This document shows, one piece after another, positions 34,459 to 62,310 of a DNA stretch of 64,000 bases; the first letter of the stretch is position 1; every line of letters starts with the position of its first letter. The notes under the pieces are model-generated. The model searched no databases. It was given only the letters and a program-made list of their open reading frames with translations, and was not told where the DNA came from. The position numbers and the translations under genes were made by a program. This DNA is from Escherichia phage pEC-M719-6WT.1, in sequence record OQ845957.1; one strand, 5' to 3'.

Positions 34459-34474
34459 TATGGAGAGACTAAGT

Positions 34475-35215
34475 ATGAAAAGTATTATTGCATTCACTGG
34501 TAAGGCTCGTTCTGGAAAAGACACTTCCTGTACTCTGGTAAGAAATGCCTTGACTGAGAAAGGTTACGAAGTTAAAGTTTTTGCGTTTGCAGATAACCTT
34601 AAAAACACTGCTGGAGATATCTTCAACCTGACTTGGGAAGATTTGTATGGAGACACAAAAGAAACTCCACAGGTCTTCACACTGACTCATGCAGCACTGT
34701 CTTCACAGGTTATTTGGGCTTTTTTCAGACACATGCAAGATAAGAATATCCATAAGGATTCAAAACTGTGTGGTGAATTAACCGATAAACTAATCAAAGA
34801 ACTGAAAAAGGTTGGTAAACCAACATTACTCACCAGACTCGGCTTGCGTAATGAATATAAAGTCTCTTCACGTCAAATCCAACAAGTTTGGGGAAGTGAA
34901 GTTGTCCGTAAAATCTTGGGTGAAAGGTTCTGGATTATTGACTTAGCAGAACGCATGGAGAAGTTCTTTGGTGAATGCCATACAGAAGACCATGAAGGTA
35001 TTGCACTAATCTGTGATTTAAGATTTGACATTGAGGCTGAGTTTCTGCAAAGTTATGACAGTCAAATCATTGAGGTGAAGAGAAGCAACGCTACACAAGT
35101 TGCTTCACATCATTCTGAGAAAGGTATTTCAACCTTATTTGAGCGTGACATTATTCAAAACAATGGCACAGTTGATGAGCTTGAAAGTAAATTAAAAGCT
35201 ATCGTTGGAATTTAA
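34475..35215 (+). CDS. Deoxynucleoside monophosphate kinase (T4 gp1-like)
   Basis: P-loop GKARSGKDT near N-terminus; GGAGAG RBS 7 nt upstream of this ATG (ORF track starts 15 nt earlier). Confidence 0.7.
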   Translation: MKSIIAFTGKARSGKDTSCTLVRNALTEKGYEVKVFAFADNLKNTAGDIFNLTWEDLYGDTKETPQVFTLTHAALSSQVIWAFFRHMQDKNIHKDSKLCGELTDKLIKELKKVGKPTLLTRLGLRNEYKVSSRQIQQVWGSEVVRKILGERFWIIDLAERMEKFFGECHTEDHEGIALICDLRFDIEAEFLQSYDSQIIEVKRSNATQVASHHSEKGISTLFERDIIQNNGTVDELESKLKAIVGI

Positions 35216-38793: not shown

Positions 38794-39834
38794 ATGGAAA
38801 AGTACACGTTAACAAAACTCCCAGATACTGTGACACATGTCTTTATTGACTCTGACAGCATCGCTTACAAGGGAGCCTGTGTCGTTGAGAAAGCAAAGTA
38901 CAAGTATGTGAATAAACTCACTGCTGAAGGGTCTGATGCCTTTGAAAGTGCTAAAGATGCTAATCAATGGCTATCTGACCAGAGAGTTCTGACAGAGGAA
39001 CTTGGTCTTGCATTCGATGAAGATGAATGGGAAAGACAATCTTGGAAAGAAGCAAAGAGTGAGAAAGAAGCTATTATGGCAACTCAACAAGTTCTTCAGG
39101 AATGGTTGAAAGTTGTCGGTAAAGAACGAACTTGGATGGGATACCTCACTGAGAAAGGTGTACATAAACACAAAGACATTAAAGGTCTTGAACACCAGTA
39201 TCAAGGTAACCGTAAAGAATCAGTAACCCCTACGCATTTAGTTGCTTGTCGTGAGTATCTTCTGTCACGACCTGAGTTTAAGCTTCTCAAAGGTGGCTTT
39301 GAAGCTGACTCCATTGTTATTGCAAAAGCTGAGAAGATGGGTAAGAAGGCTGCTCTTATGAGCATTGATAAAGACCTTCGCCAAGCGGAAGGAACTTACT
39401 GTATTGATATGACTTACGAGAAAGCCCCTCTTATTTTCATTGCAGATGGTAACGTAGGTAATATTTGGGATTGCCCTATCAAGTCTAAGCCGAAAGCTAA
39501 AAAGACTGTTGGTGTAGGCTTCAAATTCCTCTGCTATCAAGCTGTAGCAGGAGATAACGCAGATAACTACTTTGGCCTTAAGGGTGCAGGGAAAGTTGCT
39601 GTAATGAATGCTCTGGAAGGTAAAGAGACCTATAAAGAATGCCTTGATGCTATCTATGAACTTTACGCTAAGAAAGAGTCATACACTTATGAATCGTGGG
39701 ATGGTCAGGTGATTACAAGAACACCTCTTGAACTGATGCACCAGCACTTCTGGATTGCCTATCAAGAGCGTAACCCTAAAGATGATTTCACCTTTGCTAA
39801 ATATGGTTGGGAGCCTGTTATGAATGAAGATTAA
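38794..39834 (+). CDS. 5'-3' exonuclease / flap endonuclease (T7 gp6-like)
   Basis: VFIDSDSIAYKGA and SIDKDLRQ acidic motifs resembling FEN/gp6 metal-binding clusters; ORF track start at 38782 is TTG. Confidence 0.6.
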   Translation: MEKYTLTKLPDTVTHVFIDSDSIAYKGACVVEKAKYKYVNKLTAEGSDAFESAKDANQWLSDQRVLTEELGLAFDEDEWERQSWKEAKSEKEAIMATQQVLQEWLKVVGKERTWMGYLTEKGVHKHKDIKGLEHQYQGNRKESVTPTHLVACREYLLSRPEFKLLKGGFEADSIVIAKAEKMGKKAALMSIDKDLRQAEGTYCIDMTYEKAPLIFIADGNVGNIWDCPIKSKPKAKKTVGVGFKFLCYQAVAGDNADNYFGLKGAGKVAVMNALEGKETYKECLDAIYELYAKKESYTYESWDGQVITRTPLELMHQHFWIAYQERNPKDDFTFAKYGWEPVMNED

Positions 39835-40324
39835 AGGTTTTGGCAATTGCCCTGAATATGGACATTGGATTTCACTGTGCGGGGAGATTGACCCCGCTAA
39901 GTATTTTGGTTTCGTTTACTTAGTGTACTGCAAAAAGACTGGACAGTACTATTTGGGTAAGAAGCAGTTTAACAATGTCACCAAGAAGAAAGTAGCTGGA
40001 AAGACCAGACGTAAGATTGTGACAAAAGAGAGTGACTGGATGGTTTACCAGACCTCTTCTGAATACATTAAGAAAGATATTGAAACTTTCGGTGAAAAAG
40101 AGTTTGACTTCTATATTGTCCAAACTTATTATACGCGAGGTGGGTTGGTCTACGGAGAAGCTAACCTTCAGCATAAGTTTGACGTCATGACAAAAAGGAT
40201 TGACTCCAAGCTTCGACTCTTCTACAATGCAAACATTGCAGCAATCAAGTTTCTGACTAAAGAGACTTATGAAGATGCTGAGAAGAGAATCCATAAAATC
40301 ATGAAACTTAATGAGAGAGAATAA
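39824..40324 (+). CDS. GIY-YIG-like domain protein (possible nuclease)
   Basis: FVY-x10-YLG arrangement (FVYLVYCKKTGQYYLGKK). Confidence 0.4.
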   Translation: MKIKGFGNCPEYGHWISLCGEIDPAKYFGFVYLVYCKKTGQYYLGKKQFNNVTKKKVAGKTRRKIVTKESDWMVYQTSSEYIKKDIETFGEKEFDFYIVQTYYTRGGLVYGEANLQHKFDVMTKRIDSKLRLFYNANIAAIKFLTKETYEDAEKRIHKIMKLNERE

Positions 40325-40538
40325 TATGATATTTAACAAAATTAATAATGACCACGTAGCTAAGATTGACAGCCACATTGCAGCACTGAAAGATGCAATC
40401 GTAAAAGCGAAAGCAGCTACGGAGTCCGAAATGGAGGCTCTTGAGTCCCAGATTCAGCACCTGATTAACAAACGTGTTGAACTGAAAGGCCGACTGGATT
40501 ATATTGAGTCTCAGCAGAAACTGTTTCAGGAGGTTTAA
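40311..40538 (+). CDS. Small coiled-coil protein
   Basis: 75 aa ORF. Confidence 0.4.
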   Translation: MRENNMIFNKINNDHVAKIDSHIAALKDAIVKAKAATESEMEALESQIQHLINKRVELKGRLDYIESQQKLFQEV

Positions 40539-41293
40539 TGTTTAATTCCAGAGAATCCGTTTTAACTTGGAATCAGCGTTGTGGTAATACCCCGTTGACT
40601 CCTTATACACCTGAGTATTGGTCTTCAATGCATAGTCAAGCACTTTGCATGTTAGAAGAGGCAAAAGAGCTTTTGAAAGCCATTGATGAAAAAGACCCTA
40701 TTGAGGCTCTTGATGCTCAGGCAGATTTACAGTATGTTCTTGATGGACTGATTTACCTTTCACAGCATGACCATGACGGAGCTATGAAAGCAGTCTGTCA
40801 GAATAACAACCTGAAGTATACCGATAACTACGAAGAAGCTTTGAAGCGTCTTGCAGATATCGAGAAGCGTACTGGTGATGAATGTCGTGTACGTGCTTCA
40901 ATGATTGACGGAAAAGAATGGTACGCCATTGTCCGTGAATCTGATAAGAAGATTATGAAGCAGTCTAATCTTCCTAAAGTACAGCTTGCAGAGTTCATCG
41001 CGGAACTTGAAAGCAAAGAATTGTTCGTGGTAACATCTGACACATGTGTTATCTGTAAAGGTCTTGTAGGAAGTTTGAAAGACCTTGGATTGAGTGACTT
41101 CACAGAAGTTCGACCAATCAGTTCGAAAGCAGACAAAGACTTCTGCCGAGAAAACGGATTATGGCTTGCAGATATTGTTTACTATGACGGTGAGAAGTTC
41201 CATGTGACCTCATACCCGAAACTGAACTATGATGCAAATAACCTGAAGAATTGGTTAAAAGGGGTTGGTTATAATGGATTCACAGAACATTAA
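40538..41293 (+). CDS. MazG-like nucleotide pyrophosphohydrolase domain protein with C-terminal thioredoxin-fold-like region
   Basis: N-terminal LEEAKELL...DAQADLQYVLDG acidic-helix pattern; C-terminal CVIC and YYDGEKF motifs. Confidence 0.4.
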   Translation: MFNSRESVLTWNQRCGNTPLTPYTPEYWSSMHSQALCMLEEAKELLKAIDEKDPIEALDAQADLQYVLDGLIYLSQHDHDGAMKAVCQNNNLKYTDNYEEALKRLADIEKRTGDECRVRASMIDGKEWYAIVRESDKKIMKQSNLPKVQLAEFIAELESKELFVVTSDTCVICKGLVGSLKDLGLSDFTEVRPISSKADKDFCRENGLWLADIVYYDGEKFHVTSYPKLNYDANNLKNWLKGVGYNGFTEH

Positions 41294-45837: not shown

Positions 45838-46041
45838 GCGTTTGTGGGAAGGTTTCACAGTTGATGCACCGATGATTGTACTAGGTTTCTTCTTTGTGAA
45901 CCTGTTTATTGATATCAAACAAGGTGCTTTGTTTGGTGCTATGTTAGTATGGGTAATCTTTGAGATTCTAGAAATCCATCTTGACATTAGCGGAAAACTT
46001 AAAAAGTTTGTTGAGAAGATTTTCAAAAAGAATTAATATAA

Positions 46042-46064
46042 GGGTCTCTTCGGAGACCTTTTTC
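46042..46064 (+). terminator. Rho-independent terminator (identical stem to 41933 copy)
   Basis: GGTCTC-TTCG-GAGACC-TTTTTC. Confidence 0.7.
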
Positions 46065-46082
46065 GTATATAAAGGAGCACAA

Positions 46083-48224
46083 ATGGTCAAAGTACAAATT
46101 ATTAAAAAGAATGGCTCACTTGAAGAACCAGATATTAAGAAAGTCCTAGCAGCAGTTACAAAATCAGCTAACCGAGTTGGCTATAAAGAACTCCCGTTAG
46201 AAGTTGTTCATGCTCTTGAGTCAGCTTTTATGCGGATTCTTGTAAAGGCTTCTAACCAGAATGCTTTGCTGATTTCTGTAGATGATATTCACAGCATTGT
46301 TGAAGGGACTTTAGCAGAAGTTAATCACGAGATTTATGAATCTTATTCAACCTATCGTAACTACCGTAAAGAGGTTGCACAGAATTGGGATGAACTCTAT
46401 CAGAAGACTAAAGACACCCTCTTCTTAGGTGACCGTGAGAACGCTAACTTTGACAGCAGTTTAATCTCTACAAAGGGTTCTATCATTCGTGGATATCTGA
46501 CTAAAGAAATCTTCAAGCAGTATCACTTGACACCAGAAGAACTCGAAGCTATTGAAGCAGGTTTCATCTACATTCATGACCTGAGAGATTTGGTATTTGG
46601 TGGTATTAACTGCTGCCTGTTTGACATTGGTAAAGTCCTGAAAGGTGGCTTTGAAATGTCTGGTATTGAATACTGTGAACCAAAGTCTGTTCTGTCAGCT
46701 TTACAGGTTATTGGTGATGTTGTATTGTCAGCAACTGCACAGCAATTTGGTGGATTTACTTTAGCAGAGATTGATAAGGTGCTTGTACCGTATGCTAAGA
46801 AGTCTCTACGCTATCATGCTGAGAAAGCAGCATCTTACGGTATCCCTAAAGAACATTACCACAATTATGTCATGGAGCAGCTACAGATTGAATTAACTCA
46901 AGGTTTTCAGTCACTTGAGATGAAACTGAATACTGTACCTTGCAGCCGTGGTGACTTTGCATTCACAACTTTAACATTTGGTTTACTTGACTCAGACATG
47001 TCTAATGAAGACAACCGACTACAATACATGATTGCAAGCACTCTCCTAGATGTTCGTATGAATGGACAAGGTAAGAGCAAGAAGCCTGTTGTATTTCCTA
47101 AACTGGTTTATATCTATGACCAGAAGAGACATGATGAAAATATCTGTCAAGGACACCTGTACAGTAAAGCTATTGAGTGTTGCTCTAAAGCAATGTATCC
47201 AGACTTCTTAAGCGTATCTGGTCATGGTGCTGTAGCAGAAGCTTTTGAGCGTTCTGGCAAGGTAATTTCACCGATGGGTTGCAGAGCGTTTTTATCACCA
47301 TATCTTAACGAAGATGGTGAAGAATTTTATGTAGGTCGTGCAAACATTGGTGCAGTATCTTTGAACTTGCCAATGATTTACCAGTATGCTAGAGAGAATG
47401 GTTTAGACTTCTGGAGAGAGATTGACAAATACCTTGAAATGATTCGCAGTTTTCATAAGAAACGTTATGAGATGATTGCTAACATGCCAGCAAGTTCAAA
47501 CCCTCTAGCATTCACACAAGGTGGATTGTACAAAGGGAATAAGAAGCCAACTGATAAGATTGGTTGGGATACTGTGAAATCCTTCACAGCATCTTTCGGT
47601 GTAACTGCACTTGATGAGCTTTCTGTACTGGCTGGAGAAGGTAGACTGCATGAGTCTCAGAAAGTGATTGCACAGCAAGTTCTAGACTACCTGAATGACC
47701 GTCTGGCATACTTTAAAGAGCAAGATGGCTTCTTGTATGCCCTTTATGGTACACCTGCTGAGAGCCTTTGTGGGACGCAATTGAAGCAGTTCCGTAATAT
47801 GTTTGGTGTTGTGAAAGATGTGTCTGATAAAGAATACTTCACTAACAGCTTCCATATGAACGTTGCAGCAGATATTACTCCGTATCAGAAGCAAGACTTG
47901 GAAGAATCTCTGTTCCATAGCTGTAATGGTGGTCACATCCAGTACATTCGTCTGGCTAACCCAGAGAACCATAAAGCTATCAGGGCTTGTGTCTCAAGAG
48001 GCATGGGTAAAGGATTCTATCAAGGGGTTAACTTTGACTTAGCAATCTGTGAGAATTGTGGTCATCGCCCTAATTCAGATGTTGAAGAGTGTCCTAAGTG
48101 TCATTCACATGATATCTCAGTTATCAACCGTGTCTGTGGTTACCTTGGATGGACTAAGATTAAAGGAACCTCAAGAATGAATGATGCAAAAATTGCTGAG
48201 ATTCGTGACAGAAAATCTATGTAA
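46083..48224 (+). CDS. nrdD: Anaerobic ribonucleoside-triphosphate reductase
   Basis: C-terminal CENCGH...CPKCH zinc site and glycine-radical motif RVCGYLG; ORF-track start at 45981 is TTG, ATG at 46083 follows AAGGAG RBS. Confidence 0.85.
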   Translation: MVKVQIIKKNGSLEEPDIKKVLAAVTKSANRVGYKELPLEVVHALESAFMRILVKASNQNALLISVDDIHSIVEGTLAEVNHEIYESYSTYRNYRKEVAQNWDELYQKTKDTLFLGDRENANFDSSLISTKGSIIRGYLTKEIFKQYHLTPEELEAIEAGFIYIHDLRDLVFGGINCCLFDIGKVLKGGFEMSGIEYCEPKSVLSALQVIGDVVLSATAQQFGGFTLAEIDKVLVPYAKKSLRYHAEKAASYGIPKEHYHNYVMEQLQIELTQGFQSLEMKLNTVPCSRGDFAFTTLTFGLLDSDMSNEDNRLQYMIASTLLDVRMNGQGKSKKPVVFPKLVYIYDQKRHDENICQGHLYSKAIECCSKAMYPDFLSVSGHGAVAEAFERSGKVISPMGCRAFLSPYLNEDGEEFYVGRANIGAVSLNLPMIYQYARENGLDFWREIDKYLEMIRSFHKKRYEMIANMPASSNPLAFTQGGLYKGNKKPTDKIGWDTVKSFTASFGVTALDELSVLAGEGRLHESQKVIAQQVLDYLNDRLAYFKEQDGFLYALYGTPAESLCGTQLKQFRNMFGVVKDVSDKEYFTNSFHMNVAADITPYQKQDLEESLFHSCNGGHIQYIRLANPENHKAIRACVSRGMGKGFYQGVNFDLAICENCGHRPNSDVEECPKCHSHDISVINRVCGYLGWTKIKGTSRMNDAKIAEIRDRKSM

Positions 48225-50152: not shown

Positions 50153-50180
50153 AGGGAACTGTAAAAGGTTCCCTTTTTAT
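50153..50180 (+). terminator. Rho-independent terminator
   Basis: GGGAAC-TGTAAAA-GGTTCCC followed by TTTTTATTTT. Confidence 0.7.
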
Positions 50181-50192
50181 TTTGGACAGAAA

Positions 50193-50708
50193 ATGTACTT
50201 ATCTAACTTGAAACGTGCTGCTGCAATGTCTGTTCTAAGACTTGACTTTGATGAACGTCAAGAGTTCATTGATTCCCATCAGTACGACCCTTCTAATTCT
50301 AATCACATGGTTCTTTGGAATCGTGGGAAGTTTCGTGACAGTTCCCTCTTTGCATACTACCCTCATTATACAATTGACAATCTTTATGAGTACTGTGTTG
50401 TCAAGAACACTATTGCAACTCTTAACAAGCTTTGTCATTATTCTGGCAAGCAAGCCTTTACATTAGGCCACCACAAACCCGTCACAAAGGGTGGTGAACA
50501 TCATTGCTCTAACTGGTTTATCCAGACTCAGCTTGATAACCAGAAGCAGGGAGAAACTATTCTGGACACTCCTAAGATGACTTATGAAGAACAAAAGGCT
50601 TATCTTAAAAATAATATGCCACCAATGCTTGACAAAGAATATGCAACTCTGGCAATATCTCTCTTGTTGAAGTTCGAGACAGTTTATAGGGCAACTTATC
50701 ATGGCTAA
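50193..50708 (+). CDS. HNH endonuclease (possible homing endonuclease)
   Basis: 171 aa; His-Me finger-like segment CHYSGKQAFTLGHHKPVTKGGEHHCSNWFIQTQLDN. Confidence 0.55.
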   Translation: MYLSNLKRAAAMSVLRLDFDERQEFIDSHQYDPSNSNHMVLWNRGKFRDSSLFAYYPHYTIDNLYEYCVVKNTIATLNKLCHYSGKQAFTLGHHKPVTKGGEHHCSNWFIQTQLDNQKQGETILDTPKMTYEEQKAYLKNNMPPMLDKEYATLAISLLLKFETVYRATYHG

Positions 50709-50988
50709 AGAGAAATGGGAAATCTTACAATTAATTAGTGATGCTGGCAATGGTTGTGAGATGTATATGATTCGTGGTCATGTACCAGACTCATTAGCTC
50801 TTGAGATGCTTGACCATCACACAAACGGATTCTACAAAGAACTATGTGAACTTGGTGAACCACGTATCCAACGCACTTGGACAAAACCAGTACCAGATGG
50901 CACAGGCAACTGTTCAGTCATCTATCACATTGTGAATCCACAAAAATGTAAAACAGCTATGGCTGTGACCTTTGTAACTTTTGATTGA
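50701..50988 (+). CDS. Hypothetical protein
   Basis: 95 aa ORF. Confidence 0.45.
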   Translation: MAKEKWEILQLISDAGNGCEMYMIRGHVPDSLALEMLDHHTNGFYKELCELGEPRIQRTWTKPVPDGTGNCSVIYHIVNPQKCKTAMAVTFVTFD

Positions 50989-51000
50989 GAGAGATTAAAG

Positions 51001-51882
51001 ATGAAAACTATTATTAGCGTACTGTTGCAATCACAGAAAAAAGGTGCTTACCAAGAAGAGTTCAACATTATCCAGTTCCCGTCTGGAGAAATTGGTGGTA
51101 ACTTCCCTGAAGACCTTGTAACCTATGCTGAAGAGAACGCTTCCCAGATTGAGAACGTAATCTTCACTGTACGGGGTTACGACAAAGACACTCTGTTTGC
51201 TTTAGCTCTGGCAAAAGAGGCAATCGACAAAATGATTCCTCAGAAAGCAACTATGAAGACTGTCATCTTTGCTTATCTTCCAAATGCTCGATATGACCGT
51301 CACATGTTTAAAGGTGATGCAGCAGCACTGAAAGTGTTTGCTAATCTGGTTAATGCAATGGATTTTGATGCAGTATGTGCTCTGGATGCTCACAGTGACG
51401 TTGCAGACAACCTGTTCAAATGCTTCCAGAACATCCATCAAAAAGATGTTGCAGCACACTATGCCAGTGAGCCTACCATTGATTTCTTGGTAGCACCAGA
51501 TGCAGGGGCAGCTAAGAAGATTGCAGAGACCGCTAAAGAGGTTGATAAGCCTTATGTAACAATGGCTAAGGTTCGAGACCTGAAGACTGGTGAGATTACG
51601 GGTATGCGTCTCCTTGATGATGTAGACCTGACTGGTAAAACTGTGCTAATCATTGATGATATCTGTGATGGTGGTCGTACATTCATCGAAGCAGCTAAGT
51701 ATCTACGTGAAGCTGGAGCAGCTAAAGTTGAATTGTATGTAACACATGGTATTTTCTCAAAAGGTGTTGAAAACCTGCTTGACAATGGGATTTCACACAT
51801 CTACACTACAGACTCTTTAGGTAGTGCAAAAGACCGTGGCATTACTCATTTCGGTCAAGTAACTGTAGCAAACATTGAATAA
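51001..51882 (+). CDS. Ribose-phosphate pyrophosphokinase (PRPP synthetase) family protein; candidate ADPR-pyrophosphate synthetase of a NAD+ reconstitution pathway
   Basis: Prs-like motifs FPSGEIGG, AYLPNARYDR, ALDAHS, VAPDAGAAKK, VLIIDDICDGGRTF. Confidence 0.8.
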   Translation: MKTIISVLLQSQKKGAYQEEFNIIQFPSGEIGGNFPEDLVTYAEENASQIENVIFTVRGYDKDTLFALALAKEAIDKMIPQKATMKTVIFAYLPNARYDRHMFKGDAAALKVFANLVNAMDFDAVCALDAHSDVADNLFKCFQNIHQKDVAAHYASEPTIDFLVAPDAGAAKKIAETAKEVDKPYVTMAKVRDLKTGEITGMRLLDDVDLTGKTVLIIDDICDGGRTFIEAAKYLREAGAAKVELYVTHGIFSKGVENLLDNGISHIYTTDSLGSAKDRGITHFGQVTVANIE

Positions 51883-51929
51883 AAACTTTAAAGGGGCTGC
51901 ATAGCCCCCACTTTGAGAGAGACAAGAAG

Positions 51930-53756
51930 ATGACTAAATCAATCTACGCAGTTCCAGCAGGTCTTAATGCAGATGCCTACAAAGCAGGTCACGTCTACCA
52001 GTATCCAAGTGCTACACAGTATTTGATGCTGAACCTTACACCTCGTGGTGATAAGTGGTTTAACAGCCCCTTAGAAGTTGACGGTGTAGTTGCTTTCGGT
52101 ATTCAACGTTTCGTTAAAGATTACTTAGTAGACCATTGGAACGAAACTTTCTTCGAACGTGATAAGAAAGAGGCTGTTGATGAAATCTTGGAAATCATGA
52201 ATGGTGTTCTTGGTGCAGATGCTATCAAGCGTCATCATTGGGAAGAACTTCACGACTTGGGTTATCTGCCAGTTGCAGTGTACTCTGTTGAAGAAGGTAC
52301 AATCGTTCCTATGCGTGTTCCAATGATTATCTTCAAAAATACCGTTGAAGGTTTCCATTGGGTAGCTGGTTATCTGGAAGATGCTTTCTCTGCTGAAATC
52401 TGGAAAGCTTGTACCATTGCCACTATTGCACTGCATTACAAACGTATCTGTAAGTCTTGGGCTGAGAAGACCTGTGACAATGACTTCCATCTTCCTTGGC
52501 AGTGTCATGACTTTGCAATGCGTGGTATGTCTGGCTTCACAGATGATGCTTTCAATGCTGTAGGTCACCTGACCAGCTTTAAAGGCACTGATAGCTTCCC
52601 TGCTGTGTATACTGCTAAACGTGCATATGGTCAGTTCATGACTGTAAGTGATATTGGTAACTCTGTTCCAGCAACTGAACATTCCGTTATGTGTGCAAAC
52701 ATTTCATGGAATATGAAAGACCTGACAGAAGATAACATTCACTCACAGTACATCATGCAGTCTGATAGCTTGCTGGATGCTAAACGCTGGCGTGGAGAGG
52801 TTCAAACCTTTAAGCACCTGCTGGTAGATGTTTACCCAACTGGTATTGCAAGTGTTGTGTCCGATACTTACAACTTCTGGCGTACAGTTACAGAGATTCT
52901 TTCAGAACTCCGTGAAGTAATCTTGAATCGTGATGGTAAGCTGGTAATCCGTCCAGATTCTGGTGACCCTGTACACATTGTTACTGGTTATCGTGCAATT
53001 GAATGGGAAAATGCTAAGAGCATGTATTACAAACACATGGCAACCATTTCTCCTGACAATACTTATCTGCTTGATGCAATCTTGAATTGTAACATGACAG
53101 ATATGGGTTACGGTTTCTCTGCTTGGCTAATCTCTGAAGGTTATGAGTTAGTTGTTGATGCAGAAGACTTTAACGTTGCCGATACAGTTAACCTGAAAGA
53201 GACTTACAAGACTGGTAAAGTTGTTGTTAAACGTATGCTGACAGCAGAAATTGATGGTGCTATCAAGACTCTGTACAACATCTTTGGAGGCACTGTAAAC
53301 TCTAAAGGTTACAAAGTTCTTGATGAACACATTGGCTTAATCTACGGTGATTCTATCACTCTGGAACGTGCTGAAGAGATTCTTAGCCGTCTTGCTGAAA
53401 AGGGCTTTGCAAGTTCTAACGTTGTCTTTGGTGTTGGTTCATACACTTACCAGTACCTGACTCGTGATACCTTTGCATTCGCTGTTAAAGCAACTCTTGC
53501 ACAGATGGATGGTGAAGAAATCATGCTGGCAAAAGACCCTAAAACTGACAGTGGTCTGAAGAAGTCTGCTTTTGGTGGTGTAGTCCCTATGTGGGATGGT
53601 GATAAGCTGGAAGCTGTAGATGGTTTTGGTTTTGCAGAGTTTGAAAGTGTACTGGATAACCCTCAGTGTGCTCTGAAGCTGGTATTCTGTGACTCTCAGC
53701 CATATGGCTACGTTAACCTTTGTGATGTACGAAATGTTATTGACAGAGAGCTTTAA
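51930..53756 (+). CDS. Nicotinamide phosphoribosyltransferase (NAMPT/NadV) family protein
   Basis: 608 aa; N-terminal DAYKAGHVYQYP resembling NAMPT DSYKVTHYKQYP signature; adjacent to Prs-like gene. Confidence 0.8.
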   Translation: MTKSIYAVPAGLNADAYKAGHVYQYPSATQYLMLNLTPRGDKWFNSPLEVDGVVAFGIQRFVKDYLVDHWNETFFERDKKEAVDEILEIMNGVLGADAIKRHHWEELHDLGYLPVAVYSVEEGTIVPMRVPMIIFKNTVEGFHWVAGYLEDAFSAEIWKACTIATIALHYKRICKSWAEKTCDNDFHLPWQCHDFAMRGMSGFTDDAFNAVGHLTSFKGTDSFPAVYTAKRAYGQFMTVSDIGNSVPATEHSVMCANISWNMKDLTEDNIHSQYIMQSDSLLDAKRWRGEVQTFKHLLVDVYPTGIASVVSDTYNFWRTVTEILSELREVILNRDGKLVIRPDSGDPVHIVTGYRAIEWENAKSMYYKHMATISPDNTYLLDAILNCNMTDMGYGFSAWLISEGYELVVDAEDFNVADTVNLKETYKTGKVVVKRMLTAEIDGAIKTLYNIFGGTVNSKGYKVLDEHIGLIYGDSITLERAEEILSRLAEKGFASSNVVFGVGSYTYQYLTRDTFAFAVKATLAQMDGEEIMLAKDPKTDSGLKKSAFGGVVPMWDGDKLEAVDGFGFAEFESVLDNPQCALKLVFCDSQPYGYVNLCDVRNVIDREL

Positions 53757-53770
53757 ATAAGTATTATAAG

Positions 53771-53793
53771 AGGCTCCTACTGGAGCCTTTTTA
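53771..53793 (+). terminator. Rho-independent terminator
   Basis: GGCTCC-TACT-GGAGCC-TTTTT. Confidence 0.7.
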
Positions 53794-61527: not shown

Positions 61528-62310
61528 ATGGGTATTGTAAAAGTCATCAAAGGTGATATCTTCGCAGACTTTGAGAAAGGTAAGTTTGATATCATCGGTC
61601 ACGGTTGTAACTGTATGAATCTGATGGGTGCAGGTATTGCTGACAAGATTTCTAAGGGCTACCCAAAAGCCTATGAAACTGATGCTGAAGTCTACCGTGT
61701 AGCAGGAGGAAGAGAGCATAAACCTTGTCAGAAACTGCTTGGTAAACTCTCTGTAGCACGTCTTAAACAAGGCCGTATTGCTAACCTGTACACTCAGTTG
61801 AAGACTGGTAAAGATGCTCGCTATGATGCTCTTGAGAGCGCTCTGTTGAGCCTTAACCAGTACTGCAAAGTGAATAGACTGAAGAAAGTTGGGCTTCCAA
61901 TGATTGGTGCAGGGATTGGTGGGCTTGACCCGAAAGCTGTTGTGGTGATTATGAATCACATCCTGAAAGATGTTGATGTTTACCTTTACGTGTTTGAAGA
62001 GGCAATGTTTAATACTCTGTCAACATGGGGTAATCACAGTGAGCCACAATACTTTGCAGGTGTAGCCGTTGTCAACGAAGATGGAGTTACCCTCTTCAGG
62101 CATCGCCAGTACAAGGTACATCGGAGTAACCCTCCGGTTGAGCGAATGTCTCTAAGTAACGCTCAAGTTACCCCGCCGTTGAAAGGTAGTATGCAACGTG
62201 CAGTGACATTTGGAAGTGAACCTGATGTGTACATTCTTGCAGCAAATGAGAAAGATGCTGAAGCAATTATAGACATTTCTAATATCAAGTTCTTAGCTGC
62301 AAAGAACTAA
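61528..62310 (+). CDS. Macro-domain protein (ADP-ribose binding/processing) with ~110 aa C-terminal extension
   Basis: N-terminal GDIFA...DIIGHGCNCMNLMGAGIADKI and later GLPMIGAGIGGLDP resemble macro-domain glycine-rich ADP-ribose binding loops. Confidence 0.6.
   Translation: MGIVKVIKGDIFADFEKGKFDIIGHGCNCMNLMGAGIADKISKGYPKAYETDAEVYRVAGGREHKPCQKLLGKLSVARLKQGRIANLYTQLKTGKDARYDALESALLSLNQYCKVNRLKKVGLPMIGAGIGGLDPKAVVVIMNHILKDVDVYLYVFEEAMFNTLSTWGNHSEPQYFAGVAVVNEDGVTLFRHRQYKVHRSNPPVERMSLSNAQVTPPLKGSMQRAVTFGSEPDVYILAANEKDAEAIIDISNIKFLAAKN

Follow-up and report, generated by a model that had tools for sequence, protein, structure and literature searches.

Two adjacent genes of Escherichia phage pEC-M719-6WT.1 raise the question of whether a phage enzyme pair that looks like ordinary nicotinamide adenine dinucleotide (NAD+) salvage serves instead to rebuild the NAD+ consumed by bacterial immunity. 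The genes lie at positions 51001–53756 of the window, by which we mean the whole stretch of 64,000 nucleotides of sequence record OQ845957.1 that was analyzed, and public records name their products 'ribose-phosphate pyrophosphokinase' and 'nicotinamide phosphoribosyltransferase'. An earlier note on this DNA had proposed that the pair constitutes NAD+ reconstitution pathway 1 (NARP1), composed of an ADP-ribose (ADPR) pyrophosphate synthetase (Adps) and a nicotinamide ADPR transferase (Namat), and had named classical salvage by Prs and NadV as the alternative. We conclude with high confidence that the pair is the NARP1 operon of a Suspvirus-like Ounavirinae coliphage. The basis of this conclusion here is gene presence, orthology, synteny, conservation of motifs and residues, and fold. 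The chemistry is borrowed from the enzymes of SPbetaL1 and the anti-defense phenotype from a deletion in phage Bas63, and by analogy with them we infer the same activity for the proteins of the present phage.

The first gene, adps, occupies positions 51001–51882 of the + strand and encodes a Prs-like protein of 293 aa, assigned on the basis of its open reading frame (ORF), orthology, and association with Namat. The second, namat, starts 47 nt after it on the same strand (positions 51930–53756) and encodes a NAMPT-like protein of 608 aa, a long form, assigned on the basis of its ORF, orthology, and the fold predicted with AlphaFold2 (AF2). Both ORFs were located where the earlier note had placed them, and both peptides that it quotes are there: VLIIDDICDGGRTF, the phosphoribosyl pyrophosphate (PRPP)-type loop peptide of the 293-aa protein, is encoded at positions 51643–51684, and DAYKAGHVYQYP corresponds to residues 15–26 of the 608-aa protein. 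The Prs-type PRPP loop claimed for the former was found as DDICDGGRT, along with the Pfam domains Pribosyltran and Pribosyl_synth, and the protein matched PHROG 619 ('ribose-phosphate pyrophosphokinase') at 1.2e-97 in a profile search and TIGR01251 at 3.3e-39. The NAMPT-type N-terminal signature that had been read in DAYKAGHVYQYP was borne out by matches of the 608-aa protein to PHROG 448 ('nicotinamide phosphoribosyl transferase'; profile search, 2.2e-195), the Pfam families NAPRTase and NAMPT_N, and NF006629 (8.4e-140). These family matches are far beyond chance, and both ORFs are real genes.

The pair was compared directly with the record (MZ501086) of Bas63 (Escherichia phage JohannRWettstein, BASEL, Felixounavirus), whose genes 79 and 80 form the operon in which NARP1 was discovered by deletion and metabolomics (10.1101/2024.02.11.579819). 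Adps was 77% identical to Bas63 gp79 over 293 of 293 aa without gaps, and Namat was 75% identical to gp80 over its full length (608 vs 593 aa). The flanking genes of Bas63 also matched those of the window, with NrdD, NrdG, and two small ORFs upstream and rIIA and rIIB downstream. The nearest database phage was Escherichia phage mistaenkt (MN850587; Ounavirinae, Suspvirus), to which the pair was 95.6% identical at the nucleotide level; 285 of the 293 residues of Adps (97.3%, 8 substitutions) and 593 of the 608 residues of Namat (97.5%, 15 substitutions) were identical to those of mistaenkt gp34 and gp33, respectively. The mistaenkt gp34/gp33 and SUSP2 gp74/gp75 proteins are tabulated as Namat-associated Adps and 'Adps-associated' Namat (10.1101/2024.02.11.579819, supplementary). 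By these sequence comparisons, the pair is directly orthologous to the operon in which NARP1 was first found. The system itself is already known: its discovery was made in this phage subfamily, and genes almost identical to the present ones have been catalogued.

The phenotype of the orthologous genes has been described in Bas63. Their deletion resulted in approximately 20-fold fewer plaques on SIR2-HerA; in infections by Bas63 carrying genes 79 and 80, NAD+ was partly preserved, better in the wild-type infection, and ADPR pyrophosphate (ADPR-PP) was seen only when the two genes and the defense system were present together (10.1101/2024.02.11.579819). The effect is independent of host pncC and nadR and persists in the pncC nadR double mutant (10.1101/2024.02.11.579819). 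Rescue from NAD+-depleting defense by NARP1 was observed with deletions in Bas63 and FADO and with a knock-in in SBSphiJ.

Adps differed from canonical Prs in profile searches. The protein, which is 24% identical to E. coli Prs, scored 60–135 bits on Prs models, whereas the equivalog cut-offs of NCBIfam are 296–536 bits. It passed TIGR01251 alone, a broad Prs subfamily model (134.6 bits vs a cut-off of 113); its best equivalog score was 112 bits vs a cut-off of 296, and it failed every NCBIfam Prs equivalog cut-off. K190 aligns with the catalytic flexible-loop Lys, which is K162 in SPbetaL1 Adps and K197 in B. subtilis Prs. The pairwise identities to the Bas63 and mistaenkt proteins (77% and 97%, respectively) place the protein in the phage Adps clade, which stands apart from cellular Prs and in which a Namat homologue is encoded within ten genes in 97%, as namat is here. 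SPbetaL1 Adps converts ADPR and ATP into ADPR-PP and does not use ribose-5-phosphate; in a Prs activity assay it gave no measurable product, and its authors concluded that it is not a Prs (10.1101/2024.02.11.579819).

For Namat, crystal structures of the SPbetaL1 enzyme (9W5W/9W5X; NAR 2026, PMC12774641) revealed an adenine-binding 'selectivity clamp' that separates Namat from Nampt. The clamp consists of a helix motif (selectivity-clamp helix, SCH) and the variable β1–β2 loop (selectivity-clamp loop, SCL), which gives another stacking residue (PMC12774641). In the window Namat, comparison with true Nampts located the SCH motif at residues 503–513 (GSYTYQYLTRD; positions 53436–53468, + strand), where the true enzymes have GAQTYQRNTRD (HdNadV) or GGALLQKVDRD (Xanthomonas, Xcc). 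The SCL comprises residues 40–48 (GDKWFNSPL; positions 52047–52073, + strand), with K42 third and W43 fourth, as in Bas63. The stacker of the SCL is either an Arg at position 3 or the residue after a Lys or Tyr, the residue after Lys being used in Bas63 (PMC12774641); by this comparison, G40-D-K42-W43 would supply the adenine-stacking residue in the present protein. Together with the orthology to Bas63 gp79/gp80 and the listing of the mistaenkt genes, this clamp signature supports the NARP1 type that had been claimed.

The remainder of the active site was compared with SPbetaL1 Namat, whose sequence was taken from its genome and whose numbering agrees with the structural paper. Among the ligand contacts, 18 of the 20 checked positions were identical and F392 is replaced by Tyr505; at the two non-identical contacts, where K42 replaces R40 and A196 replaces S190, the residues are those of Bas63 Namat. 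R341, D221, and F195 are equivalent to R306, D215, and F189 of SPbetaL1 Namat, respectively, and H251 is conserved. The Nampt-like catalytic core is kept (D15, Y17, F195, R198, D221, A248, H251, R341, D343, G473, D474, R512, and D513). The AF2 model of Namat had a predicted local distance difference test (pLDDT) score of 92.7, and its best match in the Protein Data Bank (PDB) was SPbetaL1 Namat (9w5x/9w5w), with a template modeling (TM) score of 0.94 on the target; NadV and human NAMPT ranked below it. Of the profile and structure comparisons that the earlier note had named as the means of telling Adps and Namat from Prs and NadV, the former left the Prs equivalog cut-offs unreached, and the latter gave the Namat crystal as the best structural match.

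By analogy with the characterized enzymes, the pair would act as follows. A defense system (SIR2-HerA/Nezha, type I Thoeris, DSR1/2, SEFIR, Kongming, or SPARSA) would cleave NAD+ to ADPR and nicotinamide, and Adps would use ATP to pyrophosphorylate C1'' of ADPR's terminal ribose, yielding ADPR-PP. Namat would then couple nicotinamide with ADPR-PP to form NAD+ and pyrophosphate, involving neither nicotinamide mononucleotide (NMN) nor host NadR and PncC. The substrate choice of Namat would be made by the adenine clamp, formed by Y505 and Y509 of the SCH and by K42/W43 of the β1–β2 loop of the partner subunit, which is predicted to sit on the Nampt-like core represented by D15, Y17, F195, R198, D221, H251, R341, and D343.

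The same two genes could in principle be read as classical NAD+ salvage, in which a true Prs converts ribose-5-phosphate to PRPP, NadV/Nampt forms NMN, and host NadR and PncC finish the synthesis, giving a general boost of NAD+. The database names and the Pfam, NCBIfam, and PHROG matches do point to Prs and Nampt/NAPRTase, but the Prs-like protein falls below all Prs equivalog thresholds, and the window Namat has clamp residues that are missing in true Nampts. SPbetaL1 Namat keeps an NMN-forming activity with PRPP in vitro, but when PRPP and ADPR-PP were both offered it made NAD+ alone, and its partner Adps was judged not to be a Prs. The pair is also located in a nucleotide-metabolism module with adjoining ribonucleotide reductases, as would suit salvage; against this, the Bas63 effect survives the loss of pncC and nadR, with ADPR-PP as the metabolite. 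A crude six-frame motif scan of the window, 64 kb of the ~87-kb genome, found no Nmnat-type (H/T)xGH or Nudix-box motif. The orthologue's genetics and metabolomics, together with the clamp residues, thus speak against the alternative set out in the earlier note, and we regard it as very improbable. A NARP2-type system, as in Vibrio phage KVP40, would combine a true Nampt with a phage Nmnat and leave the Prs-like gene only the supply of PRPP. This seems extremely improbable for the present locus, since NARP2 Nampts form a separate clade in phages that lack Adps, whereas Adps is adjacent here, the 608-aa protein shares 75% identity with a NARP1 Namat, and the window contains no Nmnat-like motif by the above scan; the Nampt-like fold and catalytic core, which fit NARP2, are common to NARP1 Namat and NARP2 Nampt.

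Several points weigh against the assignment to NARP1. No Adps structure that might show what determines the preference for ADPR over ribose-5-phosphate was found in the PDB copy searched or by a literature search, and the protein is therefore assigned as Adps by its clade, its orthology, and the adjacent namat. The in vitro data on Adps and Namat come from SPbetaL1, and the Bas63 protein purified poorly (10.1101/2024.02.11.579819). The formation of NMN from PRPP by SPbetaL1 Namat in vitro (PMC12774641) makes some classical salvage activity possible. In addition, the window Namat carries internal insertions, which could alter its regulation or kinetics.

These insertions account for the length of the protein, which had been noted as excessive and as possibly reflecting an extra domain. 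The excess was confirmed (608 vs 491 aa in SPbetaL1): the 117 extra residues are almost all internal, forming two insertions, one of which is an autonomous small domain, and there is no terminal domain. Insertion 1 (residues 258–287, ~29 aa; positions 52701–52790, + strand), defined by alignment and model, is helical and directly follows the catalytic His251, with helices at residues 251–262, 272–277, and 281–301 in the model. Neither SPbetaL1 Namat nor 496-aa bacterial homologues have it. Insertion 2 (residues 354–442, ~89 aa; positions 52989–53255, + strand) was predicted by AF2 to be an autonomous α/β mini-domain in place of the 11-residue surface loop DPEAKDELVRK of SPbetaL1 Namat. Its predicted β-α3-β2-α-β fold was confident both in context and alone (alone, pLDDT 92.4 and predicted TM score 0.82). 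Both insertion sites are expanded in Bas63 and in a wider set of 560–614-aa phage proteins, and a profile search against 1.84 billion representatives gave no credible relatives of insertion 2 outside Namat-like proteins. An 1880-aa tandem SEA-domain repeat protein was considered as a relative and judged a chance match, since 14 weak repeats add up to its score. Bas63 Namat is included in the alignment of the structural paper, which does not discuss the insertions (PMC12774641). As a speculation, insertion 2 might serve as a dock for Adps or as an active-site gate for handing over the hydrolysis-prone ADPR-PP. The insertion domain carried by long-form Namats, among them the poorly purifying Bas63 enzyme, could interest specialists.

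The closest short forms were 495–497-aa chromosomal proteins of Klebsiella, Phytobacter, Kosakonia, and Kluyvera (alignment A1, P0067–P0119), which carry the Namat-type motif GS[FY]TYQYNTRD. As far as their sequences indicate, they fit in with the bacterial homologues of NARP1 that have been reported.

Extensions of NARP1 have been described in two 2026 preprints: in NARP1-AP, the operon includes a Macro-domain ADPR-1''-phosphate phosphatase (Adpp), which counters aRES, and in RyDEP, it includes a RyR-domain glycosidase, which linearizes cyclic ADPR signals. No Macro or RyR (PF02026) gene was found among the three upstream and two downstream ORFs flanking the pair, all of which belong to PHROGs of unknown function, and neither the flanking ORFs nor the two Namat insertions matched PF02026 at E values up to 10. 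The window thus has no Adpp within two genes of the pair, in contrast to NARP1-AP. A candidate Adpp-like Macro-domain protein of 260 aa is encoded 7.8 kb downstream (positions 61528–62310, + strand), recognized from Pfam Macro and an Adpp profile, its link to the pair being conjectural. Its Macro domain corresponds to the N-terminal ~155 aa, and the C-terminal ~100 aa are an extra, Ounavirinae-specific region. The homologues in mistaenkt and Bas63 are annotated as 'putative phosphatase'.

If this protein acted as an Adpp in trans, NARP1 would be extended in dispersed form, and NAD+ would be rebuilt also after cleavage by aRES (RES-domain) systems. The gene scored 108.8 bits (positions 2–152 of 154) against an Adpp profile built here from 13 published NARP1-associated Adpp sequences, compared with 33 bits for the generic Pfam Macro, and its product was 30% identical to the biochemically validated Adpp of Vibrio phage Gary over the whole Gary length (E 1e-16). 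It also lies on the same strand as the pair. The published Adpp survey looked no further than the second gene to each side of NARP1, and neither Bas63 nor mistaenkt appears in its Table S1; the Macro gene, being non-adjacent, was therefore outside its reach. However, members of this Macro subfamily were found in 2762 phage records, among them many T4-like phages that are not known to carry NARP1, so that its co-occurrence with NARP1 is unspecific. The PDB matches to OARD1/TARG1-type deacylases and to Poa1p were similarly weak, and the extra C-terminal region also counts against this reading. We therefore hold the dispersed extension to be rather unlikely, and the Macro gene as a NARP1 accessory is a lead, not a finding. 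If distal Adpp-like Macro genes do function in this manner, they might make phages classified as 'NARP1-only' resistant to aRES. Still more doubtful is an elaborated Ounavirinae NARP1 in which a lineage-restricted Namat domain (residues 354–442) is combined with the distal Adpp-like Macro phosphatase, extending the pathway to ADPR-1''-phosphate; if true, it would predict aRES resistance, and the published two-gene-neighborhood survey would have overlooked it.

Returning to the NARP1 operon itself, the pair was 82–95% identical at the nucleotide level to ~200 Felix-O1-like Escherichia, Salmonella, Shigella, and Citrobacter phages. It is preceded by NrdA/B, NrdD, NrdG, and then the two small ORFs, and followed by rIIA and rIIB. 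Terminator-like hairpins at positions 50153–50174 and 53768–53791 enclose four same-strand ORFs, namely the two small ORFs and the pair. The latter hairpin (+ strand), an intrinsic-terminator-like element at the end of the unit, has a 10-bp stem followed by a T-run (−16.8 kcal/mol, z = −5.1). A further RNA hairpin, GGGGCU-loop-AGCCCC, with a 6-bp G+C-rich stem, was identified from conservation and folding between adps and namat (positions 51893–51908, + strand). Mistaenkt and Bas63 share this stem, whereas the tetraloop varies (GCAU/UUUA/UGAA); the centroid fold was approximately −11 kcal/mol, with z of about −2.2 to −2.5. No T-run follows this stem, which is therefore unlike a strong terminator and may be an element for RNA processing, stability, or attenuation inside the operon.

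In a scan of the + strand of the window, the decamer TTGAGAGAGA had two copies, at positions 50985–50994 and 51913–51922, each 7–8 nt 5' of a start codon, those of adps and namat, respectively, and a similar sequence is present in Bas63. This suggests a translation-initiation region common to the two genes. The small ORFs at positions 50193–50708 and 50701–50988 (both + strand) are conserved; the former belongs to PHROG 3500 and has a faint HNH-endonuclease-like match; the latter belongs to PHROG 4726. Because they are placed between the hairpin at 50153–50174 and adps, co-transcription with NARP1 is possible. ORFs of like size (~170 and ~94 aa) also stand 5' of adps in the distant Erwinia phage Coenus. 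Given the genome-wide synteny in this phage group, the association of the small ORFs with adps is uninformative.

Other differences and features were observed upstream. NrdD is encoded by one unbroken ORF of 747 aa (positions 45981–48224, + strand), whereas in Bas63 a homing-endonuclease gene separates the two joined parts of the NrdD coding sequence (L007 16631–19517); this difference is the presence or absence of a mobile intron or intein-like element. The replication/nucleotide-metabolism module also contains genes for a SegE-type GIY-YIG homing endonuclease (positions 39824–40324, + strand; 2.5e-26) and a MazG-like PRA-PH pyrophosphohydrolase (positions 40538–41293, + strand; 5.1e-07). A deoxynucleotide monophosphate kinase is encoded at positions 34460–35215 (+ strand; Pfam DNMK, 1.6e-20). 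Kongming is a NAD+-depleting defense countered by NARP1, and its reported trigger is a phage deoxynucleoside monophosphate kinase. The phage may thus encode both the trigger of Kongming (DNMK) and its antidote (NARP1).

NARP1 is an important form of counter-defense in that the depleted metabolite is rebuilt and the defense protein is not inhibited. The window adds no new principle to it, and the remaining novelty consists of the insertion domain of the long-form Namat and the possible in-trans Adpp. For annotation, the motif GSYTYQYLTRD combined with adjacency to Adps provides a simple rule for relabeling these genes.

Among the known systems, true Nampts (Haemophilus ducreyi NadV 9KE8, Xanthomonas 7YQO, and human NAMPT) and the KVP40 NARP2 Nampt share the type II phosphoribosyltransferase fold, the nicotinamide pocket, and the catalytic His and Arg with the window Namat. 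However, they lack aromatics at SCH positions 3 and 7, use PRPP, and are unpaired with Adps. The NARP1-AP of Vibrio phage Gary (Adps-Adpp-Namat) and the RyDEP locus of mycobacteriophage DyoEdafos share the core of Adps and Namat, and an Adpp-like Macro protein is encoded in the window as well; its gene, however, is separated from the pair and has the additional C-terminal region. SPbetaL1 Adps is 31% identical to the window Adps and shares the catalytic Lys. SPbetaL1 Namat is 46% identical to the window Namat and shares the catalytic core, the SCH, and the overall fold, but it is a 491-aa short form without both insertions, and its SCL stacker is R40, compared with K42-W43 in the window.

The closest counterparts belong to the Ounavirinae. 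The mistaenkt pair has identical lengths, with point differences only. The NARP1 of Bas63 (Osterman et al. 2024, bioRxiv 10.1101/2024.02.11.579819) comes from the same subfamily, although the genus is Felixounavirus rather than Suspvirus-like, and has the same gene order and flanks; counterparts of the intergenic hairpin and of the terminator downstream of the pair are present there as well, the latter 3' of gene 80. Bas63 Namat has both insertion sites and the same SCL (D-K-W), and its SCH motif is one position off (L510 in the window vs M). The window Namat is 15 aa longer than that of Bas63, with 14 additional residues in insertion 1 (265–278) and one in insertion 2.

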